Source: Actinomycetes bacterium (GTDB taxonomy: Bacteria; Actinomycetota; Thermoleophilia; Solirubrobacterales; JACPNS01). From it: DNA of 64,000 bases. The stretch covers positions 2,519-66,518 of the forward strand of contig JAEYBE010000033.1 of the NCBI GenBank assembly GCA_023404495.1, read 5' to 3'. A model generated the notes under the pieces. The model had not been told where the DNA came from, did no database searches, and saw nothing but the letters and a program-made list of their open reading frames with translations. Shown piece after piece: positions 1 through 35,377 of this stretch (the stretch's first letter is position 1; the number at the start of each line of letters is the position of its first letter). A program made the translations under genes and the position numbers.

Positions 1-685
1 GATGACAGTGCAGCCCGACGAAATTCGGCGCCTTCTGGATCGCCTGCTCGACTTGGCTGAGCGGAATGCCGAACTTGCTGTCGACCTGTCCGGTCTGGAT
101 GTAGGCGTGGGTCGACGGCTTGATGCCCGGCGCTACGCGCACCAGCGTGCGCGGTCCGTCGGGTCCGAGCTTCCCCGCAAGGCGATCGATCTCGTCGAAC
201 GAGTCGATCACGATGTAGCCGACGCCGGCCGCGATCGCCTGGTCGATCTCGGCGTCTGTCTTGTTGTTCCCGTGCATCAGGATGCGCTCGGGGGCAAAGC
301 CGCCCTTGAGCGCGAGATGCAGCTCGCCGCCCGAGGCGACGTCGCAGTAGATGCCCTCCGCGGCCATCAGGCGATAGGCGGCCGTGCAGGGGAACGACTT
401 GCTGGCAAAGAGCACACCGGGCTCCTCGGCACTGCCGTCTCCGAATTCGGCTTCTGCGTCCGCGAAGGCCTTGACCGCAGCTCCAGCACGGGCCTTCAAG
501 TCTGCTGACGCGTAGACGTATGCCGGCGAGCCGAAGCGCTCGGTCACTTCAACTACGTCACAGCCGCCGATCGTCAGGCGGCCAGCGTCGTTGATCGCGG
601 AATCGATCGGAAACGGAGGACCGAGTGGTCCGACCTCAGCGAAGCCGCCCGCGGCTGCGGCCTGGGTGTCCTGCTCAAGCGCCAT
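1..685 (-). CDS. lysA: diaminopimelate decarboxylase, N-terminal ~228 codons (3' end lies beyond the left edge)
   Basis: Hand translation of the minus strand from ATG at 685 gives MALEQDTQ..RLTIGGCDVVEVTERFGSPAYVY..FASKSFPCTAAYRLMAAEGIYCDVASGGELHLAL..ILMHGNNKTDAEI, a PLP-dependent DAP/ornithine decarboxylase pattern. It is absent from the ORF track because it has no stop inside the window. Confidence 0.8.
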   Translation of the reverse strand, partial: MALEQDTQAAAAGGFAEVGPLGPPFPIDSAINDAGRLTIGGCDVVEVTERFGSPAYVYASADLKARAGAAVKAFADAEAEFGDGSAEEPGVLFASKSFPCTAAYRLMAAEGIYCDVASGGELHLALKGGFAPERILMHGNNKTDAEIDQAIAAGVGYIVIDSFDEIDRLAGKLGPDGPRTLVRVAPGIKPSTHAYIQTGQVDSKFGIPLSQVEQAIQKAPNFVGLHCH

Positions 686-711
686 GACGAGGCGTAAGTA
701 TGACGGACGCG

Positions 712-1050
712 CTAGGAGCCGGGCATCTCGGAAAGCACCACGCGATAGGTCTCGACGTGCAATCCGGTCGGCTTGCCGTCGTCCGGCCGATCGGATGTAT
801 CGACGCCCGCGTGAGCACGGGCGAAATGCTCGCCCTCGCGCCAGGCCTTGAAGGCGGCTTCGCTCACCCAGCGGCTGACGACGACGTACTCGTCCTTGCC
901 CTCGCGGCGCAGCAGTTCAAAGCCAGCGAAACCGTCGACTTCGCTCAGATGGCTCTGGCGCCTGGCGAAGGCCTGCTCAAATCCGTCGGCACCGGAGATC
1001 GGCACCTCGACGACGTTGAATACGACGTACTCACCTTGTGTTCCGCTCAT
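712..1050 (-). CDS. antibiotic-biosynthesis-monooxygenase (ABM) domain protein, IsdG/MhuD-like
   Basis: The 112-aa core MSGTQGEYVVFNVVEVP..FELLRREGKDEYVVVSRWVSEAAFKAWREGEHFARAH is typical of ABM domains. Its ATG at 1050 overlaps the zur stop (TAATG), so the upstream extension in the track ORF is discounted. Confidence 0.7.
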   Translation of the reverse strand: MSGTQGEYVVFNVVEVPISGADGFEQAFARRQSHLSEVDGFAGFELLRREGKDEYVVVSRWVSEAAFKAWREGEHFARAHAGVDTSDRPDDGKPTGLHVETYRVVLSEMPGS

Positions 1051-1544
1051 TATGCGGCCCCCTTCTTCTGTTCGCACTCCTGGCAGGTGCCAAGCAGCTC
1101 GGCTTGATGTTCGATTCCGGAGAACCCGTACTCGGCGCCGATCTTTCTGCCCCATTCGCCGAGGCTGCAGTCATGAATCTCGACCACCTTCCCACACTCG
1201 CGGCAGATCAGGTGGTGATGATGTCCGTGGCCGCAGGCGCGGTAGGCCGTCTCCCCGCTTGGGCGACGGATCGCGTCGATCGCGCCGTCCTCGGCCAGCC
1301 GCCCGAGGTTGCGGTAGACGGTCGCAAGGCCGACCTTCTCAAGCCGTTCGTGCAGTTCTTGCGCCGTGAGCGCGGCCTCGGATGCGCCGAGCGCATCAAC
1401 GATCGCTGTCTTTTGCGCGGTGGCGCGGCTCTGGGCCTTTGTGCTGTCGGTCGTCTTATTGATAATGATTCTCGATTTTACTATGCTCGCGCCGATGAAG
1501 CTAGCCGCCGCCCTTGAGAACCCGTTCGATCTGCTCGCGCCCAC
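1050..1544 (-). CDS. zur: Fur-family zinc uptake regulator (Zur)
   Basis: LTAQELHERLEKVGLATVYRNLGRLAEDGAIDAIR..YRACGHGHHHHLICRECGKVVEI..HQAELLGTCQECE closely parallels mycobacterial Zur as recalled. The true start is uncertain: 1544 is the only canonical start codon upstream of the conserved core. Confidence 0.85.
   Translation of the reverse strand: MGASRSNGFSRAAASFIGASIVKSRIIINKTTDSTKAQSRATAQKTAIVDALGASEAALTAQELHERLEKVGLATVYRNLGRLAEDGAIDAIRRPSGETAYRACGHGHHHHLICRECGKVVEIHDCSLGEWGRKIGAEYGFSGIEHQAELLGTCQECEQKKGAA
1460..1475. promoter_or_regulatory. putative Zur/Fur box in the zur / ABC-importer divergent region
   Basis: TGATAATGATTCTCGA has a GATAAT-G-ATTCTC 6-1-6 inverted repeat with 5/6 pairing. 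It resembles the actinobacterial Zur box TGAAAATGATTTTCA. It is an AT-rich island in GC-rich DNA, next to a -10-like TACTAT at 1479-1484. Confidence 0.55.
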
Positions 1545-3297
1545 CTACGCCCAGCGCGCGTTCTTCTGCATCGTGGTGCTCGCGCTGCTCTCGGCGGCCG
1601 TCGGCTGGGCGATTGTGCTGCGCGATCTCCCCTTCTTCACGCACGCCGTCGGAAGCGGCGCGTATCCGGCACTTGTGCTCGGCGTGGTGAGCGGCGTGAG
1701 CGCAGCCGTCGCGGCACTCGCCGGCGCGGTGGCCTTCGCCGCCCTGCTGGCACTGGCGTCCGGAATCGGCACGGCGCGCGCAGCTACTTCAGACGCCCGG
1801 CGGCGCGACGCGCTGGTCGGCCTGGCGGTCGTGGCCGCGCTCGCAGCCGGCTCAGTGATCGCCTCGATCGCCGGATCGGGCGACGCGCGACTTGCCGTCG
1901 CACCGGAGTCGCTGCTCTTCGGCTCGGTGCTGACTGTTGATCCGGCGACACTCATGACGCTCGTGGCGGTTGCGCTGGTCGCAGTCGCCTGCTCGATCGC
2001 GCTGTTTGATCGCTGGCTGGCCGGCGGGTTCGACTCGAGCGTCAGCGGACACTTGGGATCGAGGCGAGCCGACCTGGCGTTGCTCGGCTGCGTGGCGCTG
2101 GCGGCCGGCGCGGCTCTCCCGGTGACCGGTGCGTTGCTGGCAGGCGCGATGCTGATCGTCCCCGCAGCGACGGCACGAATCCTGACCGACCGCGCACGGC
2201 GCATGCCGATCCTCACGTTGTTCGTCGCACTGGTCTACGGAACAAGTGGGCTCTACCTGTCGCTCGCGCTCGACCTGCCGACCGGCGCGGCGATCGCCGC
2301 CGTCGCGGGCGCAGGGTTCCTGCTTGCCGCGCTCGCCCGAGTACTCGCGCGTGGGAGCCTGCGCCGGGGACCAGTCCCGGCGCTCGCTGCAACGCTGCTT
2401 TGCGCGCTGGCAGTCGTCGGCTGCGGCGGTGGCGCCGCAGACGAGGCCCCGGAGGATCAGCCACTCAAGGTCGTGGCGACGACGCCGCAGGTGGCCGACA
2501 TCGTCAAGCAGGTTGGCGGGGAGGCGGTCGCCGTGACGACGATGCTCCCCGCCGGGTCGGATCCGCACGACTACGAGCCAAAGCCGAGCGCGATTGCGGC
2601 ACTGAGCGAGGCCGACGTGGTGTTTCGTTCCGGCGGTGACATCGACTCCTGGCTCGATCCGGCGGTCAAATCGGCCGCGCCAAAGAATCCGCCGGTCGAT
2701 CTGTCGCGGTCAGTGGTGCTGCTTTCGGAAGGCGGCGAGGACTCGGACCGGTTCAACGCCCACTGGTACCTCGCCCCCGAAAACGTCGCGCGCGCTGCCC
2801 AGCGGGTGCGCGACGAACTGGTCAAGGCAGACCCGGCGGCGCGCGAGACATTTCGCGCCAACGCCAACGAGTACCTCGACGAGATTGAGAGCGTCGAGCG
2901 GAAACTCTCATCTTGTGCGAGCCGCGTCCCGGAGGACGACCGGCGCCTGCTGAGCGGCCACGACGACTTCAACTACTTGGCCGACGCATTCGGCTTCACG
3001 ATCGCCGCGCAGATCGCCGAGACCGGCGAGGCGCAACCCTCGGCGTCGGACCTCCAGTCCGCCGTCGACGCGGCGCGCGCCGCGAAGACGCGCGCGCTGG
3101 TCGCAAGCAGCGGCGAGGTCTCGCAACTGGAGCGACAGGTTGCGGCGAAGCTGGGGATCCCCCTCCTGCAGCTCTACGCCGACAACTTGACGACGGGCGA
3201 CGACGCTTCGACGCTGCTGGGCGCGATCGGCTACGACGTCGGCCGAATCGCAGCGGCGGTCACCGACGGCGCCGTCACGTGCCCACCGACGCAATGA
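1483..3297 (+). CDS. fused ABC-3 family metal permease (ZnuB/TroC-like) and cluster A-I metal-binding lipoprotein (ZnuA/TroA-like)
   Basis: The N-terminal ~285 aa are polytopic (ENPFDLLAPTYAQRAFFCIVVLALL..IVPAATARILTDRARRM). Then comes RRGPVPALAATLLCALAVVGCGG (signal/lipobox-like), followed by LKVVATTPQVADIVKQVGG..GSDPHDYEPKPS..NAHWYL. The frame is continuous with no stop. The start may be ATG 1483 or ATG 1495. Confidence 0.8.
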   Translation: MLAPMKLAAALENPFDLLAPTYAQRAFFCIVVLALLSAAVGWAIVLRDLPFFTHAVGSGAYPALVLGVVSGVSAAVAALAGAVAFAALLALASGIGTARAATSDARRRDALVGLAVVAALAAGSVIASIAGSGDARLAVAPESLLFGSVLTVDPATLMTLVAVALVAVACSIALFDRWLAGGFDSSVSGHLGSRRADLALLGCVALAAGAALPVTGALLAGAMLIVPAATARILTDRARRMPILTLFVALVYGTSGLYLSLALDLPTGAAIAAVAGAGFLLAALARVLARGSLRRGPVPALAATLLCALAVVGCGGGAADEAPEDQPLKVVATTPQVADIVKQVGGEAVAVTTMLPAGSDPHDYEPKPSAIAALSEADVVFRSGGDIDSWLDPAVKSAAPKNPPVDLSRSVVLLSEGGEDSDRFNAHWYLAPENVARAAQRVRDELVKADPAARETFRANANEYLDEIESVERKLSSCASRVPEDDRRLLSGHDDFNYLADAFGFTIAAQIAETGEAQPSASDLQSAVDAARAAKTRALVASSGEVSQLERQVAAKLGIPLLQLYADNLTTGDDASTLLGAIGYDVGRIAAAVTDGAVTCPPTQ

Positions 3298-4067
3298 CCG
3301 GTCAGCCGCTAGTCGCAGCCGAGCGCGCGAGCTTCGGCTACGAGCCGGGCACGGTCGTACTGGCGGAGGTGTCGGCGACACTGGCCGGCGGCGAACTGGT
3401 GATCGTTCTCGGGCCAAACGGCGGCGGAAAGACAACGCTCTTTCGAGCCTTGACCGGCGAGCTCTCGCCGCTGGAGGGAAGCCTTGCGGTGCGCGCGCCC
3501 GTCGCCTACCTGCCGCAGCGCGACGCATCGCGGATCGATTTCCCGGTTTCGGCGATCGACGTCGTGATGATGGGGCTGCTCGCCGAGCGCAAGTTCTGGC
3601 AGCGCACGCGGGGCCGCGACCGCCAGCGGGCACTCGCGGCGCTCGAGAAGGTTGGATTGAGCGAGCACGCCGATCGCACGTACGGCGAACTCTCGGGAGG
3701 TCAGCGGCGGCGGGTGCTGCTGGCCAGAACGATCGTCGGCGGCGCGCAGATCTTGCTGCTCGACGAGCCGCTCGCGGGCGTCGACCCGCGCTCGGCCGAA
3801 GAGATTCGCCGCGCTCTGGATGCGCTCCGCGACGAGGGCCGGCTTGTGATCGAGGCCTCACACGACATCGATCACGCGCGCGGCGCCGATCGCGTGATCT
3901 GCCTTTCCGGTCGCGTGATCGCTGACGGGGATCCCGACTCAACGTTGACCGACGCTGTTCTGCGCGAGACCTACGCCGGCGAGATCTCGGTGATTCGCGA
4001 TCAGGAGGGCCGCGCGGTCCTCGCCGCGACCGAGCCCTGCGCACACGACCACGAGGCCGGAGAATGA
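3294..4067 (+). CDS. metal ABC transporter ATP-binding protein (ZnuC/TroB-like)
   Basis: Walker A GPNGGGKTT, signature LSGGQRRRV and Walker B LLLDEP are present. The ATG overlaps the upstream stop (ATGA). The track ORF's N-terminal extension is antisense-like and is discounted. Confidence 0.9.
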   Translation: MTGQPLVAAERASFGYEPGTVVLAEVSATLAGGELVIVLGPNGGGKTTLFRALTGELSPLEGSLAVRAPVAYLPQRDASRIDFPVSAIDVVMMGLLAERKFWQRTRGRDRQRALAALEKVGLSEHADRTYGELSGGQRRRVLLARTIVGGAQILLLDEPLAGVDPRSAEEIRRALDALRDEGRLVIEASHDIDHARGADRVICLSGRVIADGDPDSTLTDAVLRETYAGEISVIRDQEGRAVLAATEPCAHDHEAGE

Positions 4068-4894
4068 GCGCCAGCCTGCTCGCTCCGCTCTCGGGTGATT
4101 TTGGCCTTGCGAGTGCCTGTGAGTTGCTGCTGATCGGCGCTGCGTGTGGCGCGGTTGGGGTGTGGGTGCTGCACTTTGGACGCGCGATTCTCGCCGAGTC
4201 CTTCTCACACGCCCTGCTGCCCGGCCTGGTGCTTGCGGCGATGGTCGGCGCGGGACTCTTCTTCGGCGCGATCGCCGGCGTGGTGCTCGCGTATCTCTTG
4301 CTGCTTGCGTCGGGGCGCGCACCCAGCACGAGCCTGCCGACGGCCAATTCTGTGACCGTCACGACGCTCGTGGCGCTTGGCGCCCTGCTGGCTTCGAGCG
4401 GCGCCGGCGTCGCACAGTTCGAATCGCTGCTGTTCGGCGATCCGCTGGCTTCCTCTTGGCGAGATGTTGCGACCGCGGCGGTCTTCGCGATTGTCGCCTT
4501 TGCCGCGCTGGCCGTACTCGGCGGCCGATTCGCCGCGCTCGCGTTTGACCCCGGTGCGGCGCCCGCGCTCGGCGTGAACACCGCCCGCGTCTCCGCCGCG
4601 GCGCTCGCGCTGCTCGCCGTTTCGGTCTCTGTCGCAGCCAACGTTTCGGGCACGCTGCTCGCGCTGGCTCTGGTCACCGGGCCGGCGCTGGGCGCGTCGG
4701 CGATCTCGCACCGTTTGAGGCCGGCGCTTGCAGTTGCGGCACTGGCGGGTGCCTTCAGCGGAGTAGCTGGGATCTATCTCTCCTACTACGCCGATTGGCC
4801 GGCGAGCGCCAGCATCGCCTTGGTGATCTGCCTGTGGACCCTGCTCGCCAGCGCCTTCGGCCGGATTTCGCCGGGCCGCGCCGGGGTAGCCTGA
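4064..4894 (+). CDS. second ABC-3 family metal permease (ZnuB/TroD-like)
   Basis: The 276-aa polytopic protein (LLIGAACGAVGVWVLHFGRAILAESFSHALLPGLVLA) has an ATGA overlap with the ATPase gene. Confidence 0.85.
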   Translation: MSASLLAPLSGDFGLASACELLLIGAACGAVGVWVLHFGRAILAESFSHALLPGLVLAAMVGAGLFFGAIAGVVLAYLLLLASGRAPSTSLPTANSVTVTTLVALGALLASSGAGVAQFESLLFGDPLASSWRDVATAAVFAIVAFAALAVLGGRFAALAFDPGAAPALGVNTARVSAAALALLAVSVSVAANVSGTLLALALVTGPALGASAISHRLRPALAVAALAGAFSGVAGIYLSYYADWPASASIALVICLWTLLASAFGRISPGRAGVA

Positions 4895-4899
4895 TCGCC

Positions 4900-5655
4900 G
4901 TGCAGCCGGAGATTCACCTCGGACCGTTGACGCTCCAGACCTTTGGTCTGATGTTTGCGCTGGCCTTTGTGGTCAGCGGAATGATCATCGCGCGACGTCT
5001 GAAGGAACTCGGCTCGCCGGTCGATTGGGCCTACGAGATCGTGCTCGCCGCGGCCTTCGGTGGGATCGTCGGCGCGAAGCTCTGGTTCTCGCTCCAGGAG
5101 GGCGAGTGGTCGCTCTCGCAGATCTTCTCCGGCACCGGCCTGGTCTGGTACGGCGGCGCGCTCGGAGGCGCGGCAGCCGTTGCGGCGTACGCCGCTTGGC
5201 GCGGGATCTTCAATCGAACGCTGCTTGACGTAGCGGCACCGGCGCTTGCGGCGGGGTACGCGGTCGGTCGCATCGGCTGCCAGCTCTCTGGCGACGGCGA
5301 CTACGGAAAGCCGACCGATTCGTGGCTCGGGATGGGCTACCCGAACGGCACCGTGCCCACTCCGCCGGGCGTCGAGGTCTGGCCGACGCCGATCTTCGAG
5401 GCGGTGTTGATGGGGCTTCTGGCGATCGCGCTCTGGCGCATGCGCAACCGCTTTGCGCCAGGCGTGCTGTTTGGGATCTACCTGGTCGCCTCAAGCATTG
5501 AACGATTCATGATCGAGTTCCTGCGCACGAACGACCCGATCGCCCTGGGCATGACGCTCGCCCAGTGGACCAGCATCGTCCTATTCGCAATCGGCGCAAT
5601 CATGATCGCCGACTGGCGCAGAGCCCCGCACGACAAAGCTGCATCTTTGACGTAG
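4900..5655 (+). CDS. lgt: prolipoprotein diacylglyceryl transferase
   Basis: IHLGPLTLQTFGLMFALAFV..WYGGALGG..GRIGCQLSGDGDYGKPT..ERFMIEFLRTND is an Lgt pattern. GTG at 4900 is chosen because it is just past the upstream stop. Confidence 0.85.
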   Translation: MQPEIHLGPLTLQTFGLMFALAFVVSGMIIARRLKELGSPVDWAYEIVLAAAFGGIVGAKLWFSLQEGEWSLSQIFSGTGLVWYGGALGGAAAVAAYAAWRGIFNRTLLDVAAPALAAGYAVGRIGCQLSGDGDYGKPTDSWLGMGYPNGTVPTPPGVEVWPTPIFEAVLMGLLAIALWRMRNRFAPGVLFGIYLVASSIERFMIEFLRTNDPIALGMTLAQWTSIVLFAIGAIMIADWRRAPHDKAASLT

Positions 5656-5659
5656 TGCT

Positions 5660-6829
5660 TTAGAGGTAACCCATTGGGTCGACTGGGTTGCCGCCGACTC
5701 GGACCTCGAAGTGCACGTGCGGACCGGTCGAGTGGCCGGTGTTGCCGGAGGCGGCGATCACTTGGCCCTGGCGGACCGACTGGCCGACGGTGACCATCAG
5801 ACGGCTGTTGTGTCCGTAACACGTCGAGAGGCTGCCGGTGTGCTGGATGCAGATGTAGTTGCCGTATCCGCCGACCCAGCCGGCGATCCGCACGGTGCCG
5901 GTGTCGGCAGCGTGCACGGCCGTGCCAACCGGAACGGCGATGTCGATGCCGGCGTGCAGCCGGCCCCAGCGGGTGCCGAACGGCGATGTGAACTGGCCGT
6001 TGACCGGCCACACGAGGCGGCCCGAGCCCTGCTTGATCGGCGCACTGTTGTCGAGCGCGCCGACGATGCCACCGTTGCTCGCGCCCATCGCGGCGAGGTC
6101 TTCCTGGTCGTGCGCGAGGCTGCGCGAGACGCTGGCCAGCGTCTTCTTGCGACTGCCGACGGCATCCGAAAGGTTGTTGCGCTGGGCCGCCAGGGTGCCC
6201 TTGGCGTCGGCTACCTCATCGCGGCGCTTGCGCACCTGCGCGACCAGCTGCGAGGCCTCGCGCTCGAGCTTTGCGAGCTTGACAGTCTCCTTCTTGGTCT
6301 CGCCCTTCAAGCGCGTGACCTTGGAGATGATCTTGTGGTCCTGCGCGGCGATCCGCTCCATGTAGGTCGTGCGTTCGACCATGTCGGCAAATCCGCGCGA
6401 GCTCAAAACAACCTGCACGACGTTGGGCTCGCCCTGCTTGTAGACCTCGACGATCCGCGCGGCCAGCACCTTGCGCGAGTGCTCGAGCTGCGACTTCAGA
6501 CGCGCGAGGCGATCGCGCGAGATCGAGAGCTGGTTGGCGATCTTCTTCTGCCGGGCGGCCTTGGCGTCGAGGTCGCGCTGGATGCGGTTCTGCGTCGACT
6601 GGAGCTTCGAGATGCGTCCGCGCAAGCCGGAGATCTTGCCCGAGAGTCGCGAAATGTCGCTCGAAAGCCGGCTCGTCTTCGCCGACTTGGCGGCGATGCT
6701 GTTCTGCAGCTCGGCCGCGGTCTTTGCGCTCGAGTCGCTCGGATCGGCCAGGTAGAAGGCGACCAGGAACGTGCAGATCGCAAAGGCCACGATTGCCGCG
6801 CGCGCCGAGTTGTTGATCGATCGATCCAT
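5660..6829 (-). CDS. secreted coiled-coil protein with C-terminal M23 (LytM) peptidase domain, EnvC-like
   Basis: It has an N-terminal anchor, a long heptad-rich region, then HAGIDIAVPVGTAVHAADTG..YGNYICIQH..GNTGHSTGPHVHFEV. It lies 15 nt after the upstream gene, so it is likely co-transcribed. Confidence 0.85.
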   Translation of the reverse strand: MDRSINNSARAAIVAFAICTFLVAFYLADPSDSSAKTAAELQNSIAAKSAKTSRLSSDISRLSGKISGLRGRISKLQSTQNRIQRDLDAKAARQKKIANQLSISRDRLARLKSQLEHSRKVLAARIVEVYKQGEPNVVQVVLSSRGFADMVERTTYMERIAAQDHKIISKVTRLKGETKKETVKLAKLEREASQLVAQVRKRRDEVADAKGTLAAQRNNLSDAVGSRKKTLASVSRSLAHDQEDLAAMGASNGGIVGALDNSAPIKQGSGRLVWPVNGQFTSPFGTRWGRLHAGIDIAVPVGTAVHAADTGTVRIAGWVGGYGNYICIQHTGSLSTCYGHNSRLMVTVGQSVRQGQVIAASGNTGHSTGPHVHFEVRVGGNPVDPMGYL

Positions 6830-6847
6830 CAAGTTGCTCGCTTGCCT

Positions 6848-8011
6848 CTAGATGCCGGGGTAGTGACGAACGGTGAATGAGCCAACACCGGCGCCGTTCA
6901 TGCCGGTCTGCCAGCGCGAACCGGTGCCGCTGCGACCGCTGGTGTCAAAGCGCAGCCCGCCGACGGTCATCCACATGTGGCCGGGGTTTGTGTAGATCGT
7001 GATCCACTTGCCGGGACCGGGCGAACCCCAGCTCATGAACCCGCCCGAGGCCATCGGGCTGCTGAGGACGCCGGCCGCGTGCAACACGTAGCTGACCGAG
7101 CCCGAGCAGTCGTAGCCGCGGTCGCTGAAGGAGCCGTGTCCGCCGCCCCAGATGTAGGGAGTCCTTGCGATGCGGTTGCCGGCGGCTACGGCAGCCTTGA
7201 TTGCCGCGGGGGCATTGGCCGGAGCCGAAGCGGTGCCATCGGAGTTGAGCGTGACGCGGCCGCCGGGACCGGAAACAGGCTGGAAGTTGACTGTGTCGGG
7301 CGCCGGCTGAACGCCGACTGCGGCCGCGGCCGCGCGCAGCATGCGTCGCTGCTTGGCGATCTCGCGCAGCAGCGGCCCGCGCTTGGCGATCACGCGTCCC
7401 TTGGCTGCGGCGATGCCGTCGCGCTCGCGGGTCACCGTGGCGACGAGCTGCGATTGGCGCTGCTCGAGCCCGGCGAGCTTGACCGACTGCGCGCGCGTCG
7501 ATTTCTTGAGCTCGGTGACGCGATTGATCTTGAACTGATCCTGCTTGGCGATGCGCTCGAGGTAGTTCGCGCGTTCGACAAGCTCATTGAAACCCTTGGA
7601 CTCGAGTACCACGGTGACGATGTCCGGCTCGCCCTGCTTGTAGACCTCTACAACGCGCTCGGAAAGCACGGCCTTGGCGTACGCCAGGCGCTTCTTCAGG
7701 CGCGCGAGCCGCGCCTTGGCGACGCCCAGCTGCTGCTGCAGTTCGCGCTGGCGCGCGGCCTTGCGATCAAGATCCGCCTGGGCGACGTCCTGCTTGCCCT
7801 GCAGGCGATCGAGCTGGAGCTTCAGTTGGTGCTCACGCTCGCTGATCGCCTCGATCCGCGCGTTGATCTCGGCAGGCGTCTCGGCGACGGCGCCGCGCGG
7901 CGCAGCCAGCAGCCCTGCAATCGCGCAGGCCAGCAGGGTCAGCGCGAGAAGTGCGGTGATTGCGGGACGAAGGCTCCTCATCGGGGCCTGCAGGCTAGGT
8001 CGAGAATTCAT
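6848..8011 (-). CDS. secreted coiled-coil protein with C-terminal NlpC/P60 (C40) domain, CwlO/RipC-like
   Basis: It has a signal peptide (MRSLRPAITALLALTLLACA), a coiled coil, then RTPYIWGGGHGSFSDRGYDCSGSVSYVLHAAG. The start is ATG 8011 or ATG 7981. Confidence 0.8.
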   Translation of the reverse strand: MNSRPSLQAPMRSLRPAITALLALTLLACAIAGLLAAPRGAVAETPAEINARIEAISEREHQLKLQLDRLQGKQDVAQADLDRKAARQRELQQQLGVAKARLARLKKRLAYAKAVLSERVVEVYKQGEPDIVTVVLESKGFNELVERANYLERIAKQDQFKINRVTELKKSTRAQSVKLAGLEQRQSQLVATVTRERDGIAAAKGRVIAKRGPLLREIAKQRRMLRAAAAAVGVQPAPDTVNFQPVSGPGGRVTLNSDGTASAPANAPAAIKAAVAAGNRIARTPYIWGGGHGSFSDRGYDCSGSVSYVLHAAGVLSSPMASGGFMSWGSPGPGKWITIYTNPGHMWMTVGGLRFDTSGRSGTGSRWQTGMNGAGVGSFTVRHYPGI

Positions 8012-8149
8012 CTTTGCCGGGAAATTCCTGCTCGGTTATGACAACCTGCAACTCGCTTTGCGGGCGTGGGTCGTCCGCCCCCGGTGCGCGGGCGAGCGAG
8101 CACGTCCGTGCTGCTTGCTGTGGTCGTCTTTGCGACTTTGGTGCCGTTG

Positions 8150-8292
8150 CGCTTGCGGGGTTAGCTGTCGGGCTCGCGCACGGTCGGAAATCGAGTTCCT
8201 TTTGCGCGCTACGCGGTCCCAATGACCACGATTCGCCCCGGGGATTTGGGTCCCCCGTCGACCGATCCTGGCGAGATCGGTCGTTCAGCGAC
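8150..8292 (-). promoter_or_regulatory. c-di-AMP riboswitch (ydaO/yuaA class) in the leader of the hydrolase operon
   Basis: The minus-strand RNA reads GUCGCUGAACGA, then hairpin CGACCGAUC/GAUCGGUCG, then ACGGGGGACCCA, GGGGCGAAUCG and GAGCCCGACAGCUAACCCCGCAAGCG. These are the conserved ydaO blocks in the right order and spacing. Confidence 0.75.
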
Positions 8293-8299
8293 TTGGAGG

Positions 8300-8328
8300 A
8301 ATATACCGCAAGCGATCCGATTCGTCAA
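8300..8328 (-). promoter_or_regulatory. sigma-70-type promoter for the riboswitch/hydrolase transcript
   Basis: On the minus strand: TTGACG (8328-8323), a 17-nt spacer, then TATATT (8305-8300). Such AT-rich hexamers are rare in this GC-rich DNA. Confidence 0.5.
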
Positions 8329-8370
8329 CCGAACCCGCTGCAAATCCCCACTTTTACGGCTCACAGCGCG

Positions 8371-8410
8371 AAGAAATACGTCCTGCCGAATTCGGCAAGA
8401 CGTACTTCTT
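8371..8410 (-). terminator. stem-loop downstream of the acyl-CoA dehydrogenase gene
   Basis: AAGAAATACGTCCTGCCGAATTCGGCAAGACGTACTTCTT forms an ~18-bp stem (two G-U pairs) with an AATT loop, about 55 nt past the stop. It has no clear U-tract. Confidence 0.5.
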
Positions 8411-8464
8411 GGCAGGAAACGGCTTTAACTTGCTGGCGCGCCTGGCGGCGCGCACGCCGGGTCG

Positions 8465-9721
8465 TTAGGCCGCGACCGCTTCGGCCTTCTTGGCCTCGAT
8501 CTCGGCCGCTGCGGCCTCAACCTGGGCGCGGTAACTGCTGACCTGCAGGCGGCCGACGACCATGCGCTGGATCTGGGCCGTGCCCTCGAAGATCTGGTAG
8601 ATCTTGGCGTCGCGGTACCACTTCTCGAGCGGCAGCTCGGCGTCCCACGCGGCAGGGCCGATCAGGTCCATGCAGGCTGCGGTCGCCCACATCGCGACGT
8701 CGCCACACTTGAGCTTGCTCATCGATCCCTGACCGGCGAGCAGCGGCTGGCCGTTAGCGCCCATCCATGAGGCGCGCTGCACGAGCAGACGAGCGGCGTC
8801 GATCTCGGTGGCGATGTCAGCGATCTGCTGATGCACGCCGGGGTTGTCGAGCGCCGGCTTGCCGTCGATCTTCTGCTCGGCGAGGTAGTCGAGCGTGAAG
8901 TCGTAAGCGGCCTGAGCGATGCCGATCGCGCTTGCCCCCACGAACGGACGCGTGATTTCAAACGTCGCCAGCGCATTGGCGCCGCCGACCTTCTTGCCGC
9001 TGCGGGCGTTCTCGAGCTTCTTGTTGAGCTTGTCCATGCCGCCGAGCAGATACTCAGCCGGGATGCGGCAGTTCTCGAGGATCACTTCGGTGGTCTGCGA
9101 AGCGCGGATACCGAGCTTGTCCTCCTTCTTGCCCTGCGACATACCGGGAGTGTCCTTGGGCACGATGAACGATGCCTGTCCGCGCGTTCCGAGCTCCGGG
9201 TCGACCGTTGCCACGACGACCGTCACATCGGCGATCCCGCCGTTGGTGATGAAGACCTTCGAACCGTTGAGCACCCACTCGTCGCCCTCAAGCTTGGCGG
9301 TGGTGCGCAGAGACTTGACGTCAGATCCAGCCGAGGGCTCGGTCACGGCGTAGGCACCAAGATGCAGATCGTCGCCGGTCGCAAAGCACTTGGGAACCCA
9401 CTCGGCAATCTGCTCACCGGTTCCCGAAGAGGCGATCCCAGCCGCCGCCAGGCCCGAACCGGCGATCGAGAGCGCGATGCCCGCGCAACCCCAGTGCATC
9501 TCTTCGGCGTAGATCACCGAGAACTGTCCCTGCGGATCGGTGCCCATCGACATCATGAACTCGAGCGTGCCGATGCCCTGCTTGGCCGCCTCCTTCATCA
9601 CGTCCCACGGCACCGACTGTTCCTTGTCGTGCTTCAAGGCGGCCGGGCGCATGTGCTCGACGGCAAACTTGTGAATGCGCTCCTTGAGCTCCAGCTGCTC
9701 AGGCGTGTAACCGAATTCCAC
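8465..9721 (-). CDS. acyl-CoA dehydrogenase
   Basis: VEFGYTPEQLELKERIHKFA..YAVTEPSAGSDV..IYQIFEGTAQIQR. The GTG at 9721 is preceded by GGAGCAGAAAG, and the track ORF's 45-aa extension is discounted. Confidence 0.9.
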   Translation of the reverse strand: MEFGYTPEQLELKERIHKFAVEHMRPAALKHDKEQSVPWDVMKEAAKQGIGTLEFMMSMGTDPQGQFSVIYAEEMHWGCAGIALSIAGSGLAAAGIASSGTGEQIAEWVPKCFATGDDLHLGAYAVTEPSAGSDVKSLRTTAKLEGDEWVLNGSKVFITNGGIADVTVVVATVDPELGTRGQASFIVPKDTPGMSQGKKEDKLGIRASQTTEVILENCRIPAEYLLGGMDKLNKKLENARSGKKVGGANALATFEITRPFVGASAIGIAQAAYDFTLDYLAEQKIDGKPALDNPGVHQQIADIATEIDAARLLVQRASWMGANGQPLLAGQGSMSKLKCGDVAMWATAACMDLIGPAAWDAELPLEKWYRDAKIYQIFEGTAQIQRMVVGRLQVSSYRAQVEAAAAEIEAKKAEAVAA

Positions 9722-9895
9722 TTTCTGCTCCTGTCGGGAAATTTGGAGGGGTGCAGATGCGACCGAACGTTCGTCTGCAACCGGCAGCGCGGAATTGTAT
9801 CTGCGAATGCGCCGATCGGTGGACTTTTGCTCAGCCGTTGGGAAGCGGTTAAGCAAGCAGCCTCCCGGCCCTCACGCGAGTATCGTGCCCGTTGC

Positions 9896-22796: not shown

Positions 22797-22869
22797 AGCC
22801 GGGAAGGGGACTCGAACCCCTGACCTACTGCTTACAAGGCAGTTGCTCTACCAGCTGAGCTATCCCGGC
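22797..22869 (-). tRNA. tRNA-Thr (anticodon UGU)
   Basis: The reverse complement is GCCGGGATAGCTCAGCTGGTAGAGCAACTGCCTTGTAAGCAGTAGGTCAGGGGTTCGAGTCCCCTTCCCGGCT. It has a 7-bp acceptor stem, anticodon loop CTTGTAA and a GTTCGAG T-loop. CCA is not encoded. Confidence 0.9.
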
Positions 22870-34092: not shown

Positions 34093-35205
34093 CTAGGCCT
34101 GCATGTACCGGTCGACCATGTTGATTTCCTGAAGGCGCTTGAGGCCCTCACGAATGTCTTTTGCTCGTACGTCGCCAACGCCGTCGACGGCCTCCAGCTC
34201 GGAGTCGTCGGCGCTGAGCAACTCGTCCAGACCGCCAAACTCGTTGACGATGTCGTGGACCACCATCTTCGGTAGGCGCGGAATCCTCGAGAGGATCCGG
34301 TAGCCGCGCGGAGCCACCGCGTAGTCGATGGTGTTCATCTTGCGGTCGTAGCCCAGCAGCTCTGCCAGGCGACCGAAGTCAAGAAGGTCTTGGTGGGGCA
34401 TGCGCGCCAGCAGGTCGACGACCTGTCCGTAGGACTCGTCGGTGTCCTGTGTCATGTAGTCGCGGACCAGCCCGTGCTTCTCGGCGGCGACGCCGATCAT
34501 CGTCTCCTCGAGCTGCATCTCGATCAGCCGGCCCTCGGTGCCCAGCTCGACGATGTAGCGCTCGACCTCGACGCTCATCCGCGTGATCAGCTCGGCACGC
34601 TGCAGCACGGTGAGCACGTCGTGCATGTAAGTGCGCCCCTCAAACTCGAGCAGCGTGAGCCTCGCCGAAACCTGATCGAGCCGGCGGCGGTACTTGTCGA
34701 GGGTCGCCAGCGCCTGGTTGGCCTTGGCGAGCACCTCTGGGATGTCGACCATCACGTACTTCGCGTTGTCGACGTAGAGGCTGACCACTTCGCGGCGTGC
34801 GCTGATCGCCAGCACGATCGCGTCGGACTGCTTGGCGACGCGCTCGGCGGTGCGGTGACGTGTGCCGGTCTCGACCGAGTGGATCGTCGGGTCGGGCATC
34901 AGCTGCACGTTGGCCCAGGCGATCTTGCTGGCGTTCGCGCTGAGCACGATCGCGCCGTCCATTTTTGCCAGCTGGTAGAGCATCGCCGGCTGGTAGTCAA
35001 GGTCGATCTTGATCCCACCGCTGAACATGAAGGCGAGCTCTTCCGGTTCGCCGATGATGATCAGCGCACCGGTGCCGCCCTGCAGCACTTCGTCGATGCC
35101 TTCGCGGATGAAGGAGCCCGGAGCGATCATCTCCAGGGCCCGGAGAAGCTTCGGCTCCAACCTGTTGTGTAGTTCAACTGACTCTTCCACAGCACGTTGG
35201 GCCAT
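34093..35205 (-). CDS. disA: DNA integrity scanning protein DisA (diadenylate cyclase)
   Basis: The DAC domain has GALIIIG..AKMDGAIVLS and TGTRHRTAERVA. It is followed by linker helices and a C-terminal HhH (VDGVGDVRAKDIREGL). Confidence 0.95.
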   Translation of the reverse strand: MAQRAVEESVELHNRLEPKLLRALEMIAPGSFIREGIDEVLQGGTGALIIIGEPEELAFMFSGGIKIDLDYQPAMLYQLAKMDGAIVLSANASKIAWANVQLMPDPTIHSVETGTRHRTAERVAKQSDAIVLAISARREVVSLYVDNAKYVMVDIPEVLAKANQALATLDKYRRRLDQVSARLTLLEFEGRTYMHDVLTVLQRAELITRMSVEVERYIVELGTEGRLIEMQLEETMIGVAAEKHGLVRDYMTQDTDESYGQVVDLLARMPHQDLLDFGRLAELLGYDRKMNTIDYAVAPRGYRILSRIPRLPKMVVHDIVNEFGGLDELLSADDSELEAVDGVGDVRAKDIREGLKRLQEINMVDRYMQA

Positions 35206-35377
35206 ATGGGTAAGTGTAGATGATCACATAACCCACTCCGTCCGGAGCGTCCACTATGCACGTTTATGCCCGTTTTGCAGGCTATTTGCCGCCTCATGCG
35301 GCCGCATGTGTGCGCTCGAATGGCACTGCCAAAGGCTCAGTCCGCACACATACCGCCCACTCCGGCGCCGCAAGGGA

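Follow-up and report, generated by a model that had tools for sequence, protein, structure and literature searches.

We analysed a 64 kb stretch of DNA (contig JAEYBE010000033.1 of assembly GCA_023404495.1; hereafter the window) from a Thermoleophilia (Solirubrobacterales) actinobacterium, the minus strand of which carries a candidate riboswitch for cyclic di-AMP (c-di-AMP) ahead of two genes for peptidoglycan hydrolases. The aptamer, of the ydaO/yuaA class (8135-8300), is situated between a conserved promoter and the gene pair, that is, in the 5' untranslated region of cell wall genes. Gene 1 (6848-7981) encodes a secreted coiled-coil protein with an NlpC/P60 domain, similar to the RipC/CwlO peptidoglycan endopeptidases, and gene 2 (5660-6832), 15 nucleotides (nt) after gene 1, encodes a coiled-coil protein with a Peptidase_M23 domain and is EnvC/PcsB-like. 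Between the aptamer and gene 1 lie a linker of variable sequence (8062-8149), a 14-nt palindrome (8048-8061) that overlaps a conserved 30-nt block (8022-8051), and two in-frame ATG codons. All features of the window described below are on the minus strand. To keep the names apart, helix P1 and hairpin P2 will refer to parts of the aptamer, promoter P1 to the promoter upstream of it, and promoter P2 to a candidate promoter adjacent to gene 1.

A preliminary description of this DNA had proposed a ydaO-class riboswitch with a near-consensus promoter ahead of a two-hydrolase operon, and had pointed to an apparent conflict between that promoter and helix P1. The riboswitch, the promoter and the operon are borne out by the data presented here, whereas the conflict is not.

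The c-di-AMP aptamer

When the Rfam model RF00379 (134 positions, gathering score 38 bits) is run against the minus strand, the check that the preliminary description had called for, there is a significant match at 8300-8135 that covers the model in full (1-134 of 134) with 60.7 bits, at E = 1.3e-11 over the 64 kb window and E = 1.2e-13 on a 581-nt region around the leader. It is the sole riboswitch in the window, and apart from one chance microRNA match no other Rfam family is found in the leader, within the 581-nt region, at E values up to 5. The aptamer comprises in order the block GTCGCTGAACGA (8292-8281), hairpin P2 with 9 base pairs (bp) and a 7-nt loop (8259-8283), and the blocks ACGGGGGACCCA (8258-8247), GGGGCGAATCG (8239-8229) and GAGCCCGACAGCTAACCCCGCAAGCG (8175-8150). 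The five blocks and the 9-bp hairpin of the preliminary description, together with both promoter hexamers and both 9-mers discussed below, are all located where it had placed them.

Further insight comes from an alignment of the window leader with those of 13 non-identical relatives (n = 14), whose gene-1 proteins are 50-85% identical to that of the window. The conserved cores GGGGGACCCA, GGGGCGAAU and GAGCCCGACAGCUAACC, all present in the window, are invariant or near-invariant across the 14 leaders. With the Rfam structure imposed on the alignment, 94% of the base-pair cells are paired, compared with 29-41% in a control in which the 3' partners were slid. Nine pairs show changes on both sides, all of them within two local hairpins, and in hairpin P2 compensatory changes are seen in four of the six counted pairs. 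Helix P1, the long-range helix, the 3' strand of which (CCCCGC, 8160-8155) lies just upstream of the P1 3' strand, and a GGG/CCC pseudoknot are invariant, and covariation therefore neither supports nor contradicts them. Helix P1 itself is formed by CGCU (8287-8290) and AGCG (8150-8153); this 4-bp helix is the same as the P1 of the Rfam model and is paired in all 14 leaders. By these features of sequence and structure the element is a member of RF00379, and thus a ydaO-class c-di-AMP riboswitch.

The family is also found in the relatives L001, L002 and L014. In L014, a metagenome-assembled genome of Baekduia, a separate RF00379 aptamer (2103-2266 of that sequence, 69.2 bits) ends approximately 15 nt before a different open reading frame (ORF) of 381 amino acids, which is itself upstream of the RipC-like gene. 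This arrangement is probably a compact platform that acts directly on translation.

Promoter P1 and the predicted start site

Immediately upstream of the aptamer, the hexamers TTGACG (-35, 8323-8328) and TATATT (-10, 8300-8305) are separated by a 17-nt spacer. A promoter scan identifies this as the only sigma-70-like site in positions 7700-8700, where shuffled sequences have a mean of 0.1 such sites. The TTGAC of the -35 hexamer is identical in 13 of the 14 leaders and the -10 is conserved as TAnnnT, while the sequence of the spacer varies. The distance from the end of the -10 hexamer to the first base of helix P1 is 8-10 nt in 14/14 leaders, and because of this fixed distance the transcript is expected to start 1-3 nt before helix P1, which would place the start site at about 8293 (8294-8292).

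It is unlikely that the leader is reached by transcription from further upstream. The neighbouring acyl-CoA dehydrogenase gene (8465-9856) is followed, 52 nt past its stop codon, by a strong hairpin (8368-8413; -35.1 kcal/mol, z = -6.8) formed by a 23-nt inverted repeat, which lacks a clear U tract and is probably the terminator of that gene. In two relatives (L163 and L164) an oppositely transcribed ZnuA gene is interposed between the dehydrogenase gene and the leader, so that the leader there needs a promoter of its own. It is on account of the hairpin and of these two opposite-strand genes that we consider read-through improbable.

Just 5' of the -35 hexamer, at approximately 8332-8346, there is a conserved A/T-rich element with the consensus TTTGCAGCGATTTAG, seen in 13 leaders. 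This element, which is similar to the TTGCAGGTTATTAG part of the gene-adjacent module described below, may be an UP element or the trace of a promoter duplication.

The hydrolase genes and the source of the ligand

The product of gene 1 has a PcsB-type coiled coil and a divergent C-terminal NlpC/P60 domain, which scores 20.8 bits against Pfam NLPC_P60 (PF00877), below the cut-off of 23; this divergence is the one caveat to the two-hydrolase operon, which is otherwise supported by domain and structure matches and by synteny in the relatives. The DCSG motif and the histidine residues are invariant in 36 homologues. A profile of the gene-1 family matches Mycobacterium tuberculosis RipC (PDB 8idc_E, from the cryo-electron microscopy structure of FtsEX-RipC) over residues 44-348 with E = 1.2e-13, and EnvC and PcsB come next. 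Against the NCBIfam RipC model the protein reaches 36.8 bits, where the cut-off is 425. Its closest homologues are encoded in metagenome-assembled genomes of Thermoleophilaceae and Solirubrobacterales. Gene 2 is a clear match to Peptidase_M23 (PF01551; 116.9 bits against a cut-off of 28.7, E = 4.6e-34), and it likewise comes after gene 1 in 12 relatives whose leaders differ in sequence. In the relatives of 52% identity (L177, 1-2131 of that sequence) the riboswitch-preceded hydrolase gene is adjoined by a divergent gene for a GGDEF-domain protein of 730 amino acids.

The diadenylate cyclase DisA, the source of the ligand, is encoded in the same window at 34093-35205 (Pfam DAC, 1.6e-25; DisA-linker, 2.2e-44), in agreement with the preliminary description. 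Elsewhere in the window there is a tRNA gene at 22797-22869 (RF00005, 75.5 bits).

Complementary 9-mers upstream of the aptamer

The conflict raised in the preliminary description concerns CGCTTGCGG (8306-8314), which is a perfect 9-nt complement of CCGCAAGCG (8158-8150) in the 3' strand of the aptamer and had been put forward as an alternative 5' strand of helix P1. The complement does exist; it is not beyond chance expectation, since 10% of dinucleotide-shuffled sequences contain at least one perfect 9-nt complement linking the upstream 127 nt to the aptamer, and 3% contain two. None of the 13 relatives has the CGCUUGCGG 9-mer. In their upstream 86 nt, complementarity to the 3' strand extends over at most 0-7 nt, depending on the relative, and is in no case located in the spacer. 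As the 9-mer is part of the spacer of promoter P1, it is upstream of any start site that this promoter could use. The pairing would also take up 4 nt of the 3' strand of the long-range helix, so that it would act in competition with the aptamer fold and would not lengthen helix P1. We take the match to be a coincidence of this genome, situated in what the promoter position predicts to be untranscribed DNA, and an extended helix P1 was accordingly rejected.

There is a second perfect 9-nt complement, between GGGGATTTG (8349-8341), which is 5' of the -35 hexamer and overlaps a conserved TTTGCAG element upstream of promoter P1, and CAAATCCCC (8248-8240). We considered this pairing and rejected it as a chance match; just an 8-nt version is seen in one relative.

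The linker

No intrinsic terminator-like site is found in positions 7700-8700, so that a terminator platform like that of Bacillus subtilis is not present there; the absence of an evident terminator had been noted in the preliminary description. The linker (8062-8149) is poorly conserved and ranges from 20 to 108 nt among the leaders, those of L175 and L177 being just about 20 nt long. It is rich in C and poor in G, with C exceeding G in 15 of 15 leaders (0.39 and 0.30 respectively in the window); this tally and the two-state folding described below cover 15 leaders. Such a composition is compatible with a Rho loading site and is not evidence for one.

Two long-range pairings of the leader were examined and set aside. 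A helix between the linker (GACGACC) and GGUUGUC is predicted in many leaders, and pairing of the 30-nt block with the 3' strand of the aptamer (UAACC..GCAAG) is predicted often; in most leaders both are no better than with shuffled linkers, and they are lost in L175 and L177. A weak local pairing of AGGAA with UUCC is predicted in some leaders.

A gene-adjacent module shared with riboswitch-less homologues

The linker is followed by a GCAA-N6-TTGC inverted repeat (8048-8061) that is invariant in all riboswitch leaders, which have CGCAA-N6-TTGCAG in common. Overlapping it is the 30-nt block TTGCAGGTTGTCATAACCGAGCAGGAATTT (8022-8051), near-invariant in the 13 closest of the 14 leaders. The part of this element (TTGCAGGTTGTCATAACCnAGCAGGAATTT, 8051-8022) that is beyond the palindrome is found in close relatives only. 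No further copy of the element is found in the 64 kb window, and RNAalifold finds no conserved RNA structure in the block, which contains the Shine-Dalgarno (SD)-like sequence AGGAA (8029-8025). Of the two in-frame start codons, ATG1 (8009-8011) is present in 13 of the 14 aligned leaders, being absent from L175, and would extend gene 1 to 8011; ATG2 (7979-7981), 30-33 nt downstream of it, is invariant and is the usual choice of gene callers (377 amino acids). Neither has a good SD sequence. Exactly 10 nt before ATG2 lies TAGCCT (7992-7997), a -10-like hexamer of the form TANNNT, the T, A and T of which are invariant and the spacing of which is fixed in all riboswitch leaders. We will refer to it as the -10 of candidate promoter P2.

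The same elements occur upstream of more distant homologues of gene 1. These homologues (at most 41% identity) come from a metagenome scan with a single protein, while the close relatives were collected individually. Among the matches listed, GCA[AT]-N6-[TG]TGC[AG] is present in the 200 nt preceding the gene at 95 of 179 homologous loci, where by our estimate chance would account for less than 1% of loci, and an aptamer is nearby in just 1 of approximately 160 distant loci. The palindrome-plus-promoter module is seen upstream of RipC-like hydrolase genes across the Solirubrobacterales (L003-L160), with or without a riboswitch. In riboswitch-less loci the palindrome is followed by a -35-like CT[AGC]ACA, after 17-18 nt by TAGC[CG]T, and after a further 7-9 nt by the start codon, which by its sequence is a canonical promoter for a leaderless or near-leaderless mRNA. 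In at least two of these loci the upstream gene appears to be divergent, at a distance of under 100 nt, although ORF calls in this high-G+C DNA are noisy.

The riboswitch-bearing loci differ from this pattern in a regular manner. Measured from the centre of the palindrome to TANNNT, the distance is 46-48 nt in 69 of the 71 riboswitch-less loci scored among the matches listed and exactly 57 nt in 13 of 13 riboswitch-bearing loci, the difference (57 against 47 nt) being 10 nt, or one helical turn. The -35 consensus of the module is gone in the riboswitch clade, and ATG1 and AGGAA are situated in or beside the extra DNA. Given its presence in the gene family at large, the conserved block is probably in the first place a promoter/operator module inherited at the level of DNA, and not an RNA switch element, and the 5-6-5 palindrome has the geometry that would be expected of a site for a dimeric regulator. 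As the module is shared with riboswitch-less homologues, there is a possible second promoter, candidate promoter P2, which may bypass the riboswitch.

Promoters of the leaderless type are seen elsewhere in the window. TACACT-N7-ATG precedes disA (35205-35225), and several genes including disA lack an SD sequence and carry TANNNT 6-9 nt ahead of the start codon, which suggests that leaderless mRNAs are frequent in this genome.

Discussion

We propose the following model, to which we give as a whole a probability of roughly 80%. A functional ydaO-class riboswitch would occupy the very 5' terminus of a two-gene mRNA encoding the RipC-like NlpC/P60 and M23 hydrolases, and this mRNA would be made from the conserved promoter P1. 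In this model transcription would start at about 8293 from TTGACG-17-TATATT, 1-3 nt before the 4-bp helix P1. If the element behaves like those members of the class that have been tested, c-di-AMP made by DisA would then stabilise the aptamer and lower expression of the hydrolases, so that the element would be an OFF switch. The output would be achieved with neither a canonical intrinsic terminator nor a conserved SD-sequestering helix, and by analogy with characterised systems it is most likely either control of translation, as at Corynebacterium glutamicum nlpC, or a non-canonical form of attenuation within the C-rich linker, as at Streptomyces coelicolor rpfA. The long transcript from promoter P1 would probably be translated from the clade-specific ATG1 with AGGAA upstream of it. 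The palindrome, the 30-nt element and TAGCCT-N10-ATG would descend from the promoter/operator module of the riboswitch-less homologues and probably have a role at the level of DNA, possibly as promoter P2.

Several results weigh against parts of this proposal, most of them concerned with the output. RNAalifold, applied to the 3' leader and to the whole leader, identifies no conserved helix save a 3-bp GCA/UGC stem, and no conserved alternative pairing between the aptamer and the translation start. When the platforms of 15 leaders are folded in a two-state model, with or without the 3' strand of the aptamer available, there is no consistent change of accessibility at AGGAA, the 30-nt element, ATG1 or ATG2. 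These outcomes agree with the preliminary description, in which no obvious SD-sequestering helix had been seen. Pairing between the linker and the 30-nt element is predicted, but for most leaders it does not outperform shuffles, and the excess of C over G in the linker is modest. The gap between AGGAA and ATG1 (11-14 nt) is long for an SD sequence. Finally, the -35 of the putative promoter P2 is lost in the clade of the window, and the 10-nt gap between its -10 and ATG2 exceeds that of a classical leaderless start, so that promoter P2 may be inactive.

A more elaborate arrangement, which we offer tentatively and consider doubtful, is one of tandem promoters. Here the riboswitch with its own promoter would have been placed upstream of an older, palindrome-controlled and near-leaderless promoter, and the module, re-spaced from 47 to 57 nt and deprived of its -35, would have gained the SD-like site and ATG1. 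ATG1 would serve as the start codon of a long c-di-AMP-gated mRNA and ATG2 as that of a short, near-leaderless mRNA that bypasses the riboswitch, giving two isoforms of the signal peptide, and a putative regulator binding the 5-6-5 palindrome would act on both. If the gene-adjacent promoter is taken to be the only one in use, the aptamer becomes a decaying relic with no regulatory role. That most of the distant loci among the matches listed (157 of about 160) lack any riboswitch, and that the ancestral promoter-like module persists downstream of the aptamer, would suit such a relic, but the cores of the aptamer do not vary and its helices show covariation among relatives with proteins just 50-85% identical, a dedicated promoter is kept at a fixed distance from helix P1, and it is the -35 of the downstream module that was lost, specifically in the riboswitch clade; we therefore regard this as highly improbable. 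Nor is it likely that two transcript isoforms exist, as the preliminary description had suggested, one of them a longer transcript in which CGCUUGCGG (8314-8306) pairs over 9 bp with CCGCAAGCG (8158-8150) and which differs in ligand competence. Perfect though the complement is, the 9-mer sits in the spacer of the sole promoter found in 7700-8700, is missing in 13 of 13 relatives and is of a kind seen in approximately 10% of shuffles; its helix would use up 4 nt of the 3' strand of the long-range helix in competition with the aptamer, and entry of a longer transcript is opposed by the hairpin that closes the upstream gene and by the opposite-strand gene that intervenes in L163 and L164. We give this idea next to no weight.

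Two further alternatives concern the way in which the aptamer would act. In one, the ligand exposes the linker (8149-8062) as a loading site for Rho, or serves another factor-dependent attenuation, and transcription ends before the hydrolase genes. The failure to find an intrinsic terminator, the excess of C over G in all 15 leaders and the freedom of the linker to vary in length and sequence, as a rut-like region would, are in keeping with this; however, the bias is modest, a fair degree of structure is predicted for the linker, which is reduced to about 20 nt in L175 and L177, and the rpfA riboswitch of S. coelicolor is reported to be Rho-independent in work cited in PMC9960051. On balance we find Rho-dependent attenuation unlikely. 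In the other, the 30-nt element encodes a short peptide from TTG 8051 (MQVVITEQEF...; ORF MQVVITEQEFPGKDEFST*, 8051-7995), and its aptamer-gated translation controls the overlapping start region of gene 1. Manual reading of the alignment shows that the frame is open in 14 of 14 leaders, with TTG as the start in 13 and GTG in one, that the GTT/GTA, ACC/ACG and TTT/TTC changes are synonymous and that the remaining changes are conservative. Yet there is no SD sequence before the TTG, the frame runs into the gene in L177, and third positions are invariant in six of nine codons, pointing to constraint at the level of nucleotides. Moreover, riboswitch-less homologues have the same TTGCAGGTT upstream of them, and the ORFs that result there from the frame are unrelated and 4-7 codons long; because the peptide is thus not conserved outside the clade we have rejected it as a real leader peptide and consider such control very unlikely.

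There is ample documentation in Actinomycetota of riboswitches that control secreted peptidoglycan hydrolases, as at nlpC and rpf1 of C. glutamicum, and in other bacteria pairs of the RipC-like/M23 type are activated by FtsEX. The closest parallel is the nlpC (cg2402) riboswitch RSnlpC of C. glutamicum, a tested OFF switch that acts on translation, for which a CTCC/GGAG pairing has been proposed (PMC9960051). Both are actinobacterial c-di-AMP riboswitches that lead an NlpC/P60 peptidase operon, in an organism with a DisA cyclase, and both lack a canonical terminator; a further likeness is that the nlpC operon is also under other transcriptional regulators (PMC9960051). Unlike nlpC, the leader of the window has no equivalent SD/anti-SD pair that is conserved, and it is approximately 140 nt longer.

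In Streptomyces, six or seven hydrolase genes carry ydaO-like riboswitches (PMC10117811). The rpfA riboswitch of S. coelicolor is cited in PMC9960051 as having no canonical terminator, as Rho-independent and as attenuating transcription, and PMC10117811 cites St-Onge and Elliot for attenuation in vitro. As with rpfA of S. coelicolor and S. venezuelae, the element of the window is of the same class, precedes secreted muralytic enzymes, and has a long leader with no canonical terminator. The target of rpfA regulation is a lytic transglycosylase-like Rpf, whereas here it is a RipC-like/M23 pair, and the leader of the window in addition carries an inherited promoter/operator-like module. With B. 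subtilis ydaO (kimA), the prototype of RF00379, there is agreement in the architecture of the aptamer and in the conserved cores, although the prototype acts on a K+ transporter by means of an intrinsic terminator, and here the genes encode hydrolases and a terminator is not found in 7700-8700. As to the proteins, gene 1 shares with M. tuberculosis RipC (PDB 8idc) the layout of a coiled coil and a C-terminal NlpC/P60 domain, notwithstanding the low sequence similarity (36.8 against 425 bits with NCBIfam RipC), and gene 2 shares with EnvC and PcsB the layout of a coiled coil and an M23 domain.

The riboswitch class is thus known and the riboswitch itself is an ordinary member of it, and the puzzle of helix P1 and its promoter is not a biological one. 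The novelty lies in the lineage of the host, in the RipC-like/M23 pair as target and in the placement beside an ancestral palindrome-plus-promoter module; as a side result, the architecture of the leader is of modest interest. The finding extends the link between c-di-AMP riboswitches and hydrolases to the deep-branching and mostly uncultured Thermoleophilia. It also adds a terminator-less actinobacterial platform to a group for which the mechanism is debated, with translation favoured in Corynebacterium and attenuation in Streptomyces. The riboswitch-bearing and riboswitch-less homologues, taken together, constitute a clean natural experiment on the joining of a riboswitch leader to a pre-existing promoter/operator.

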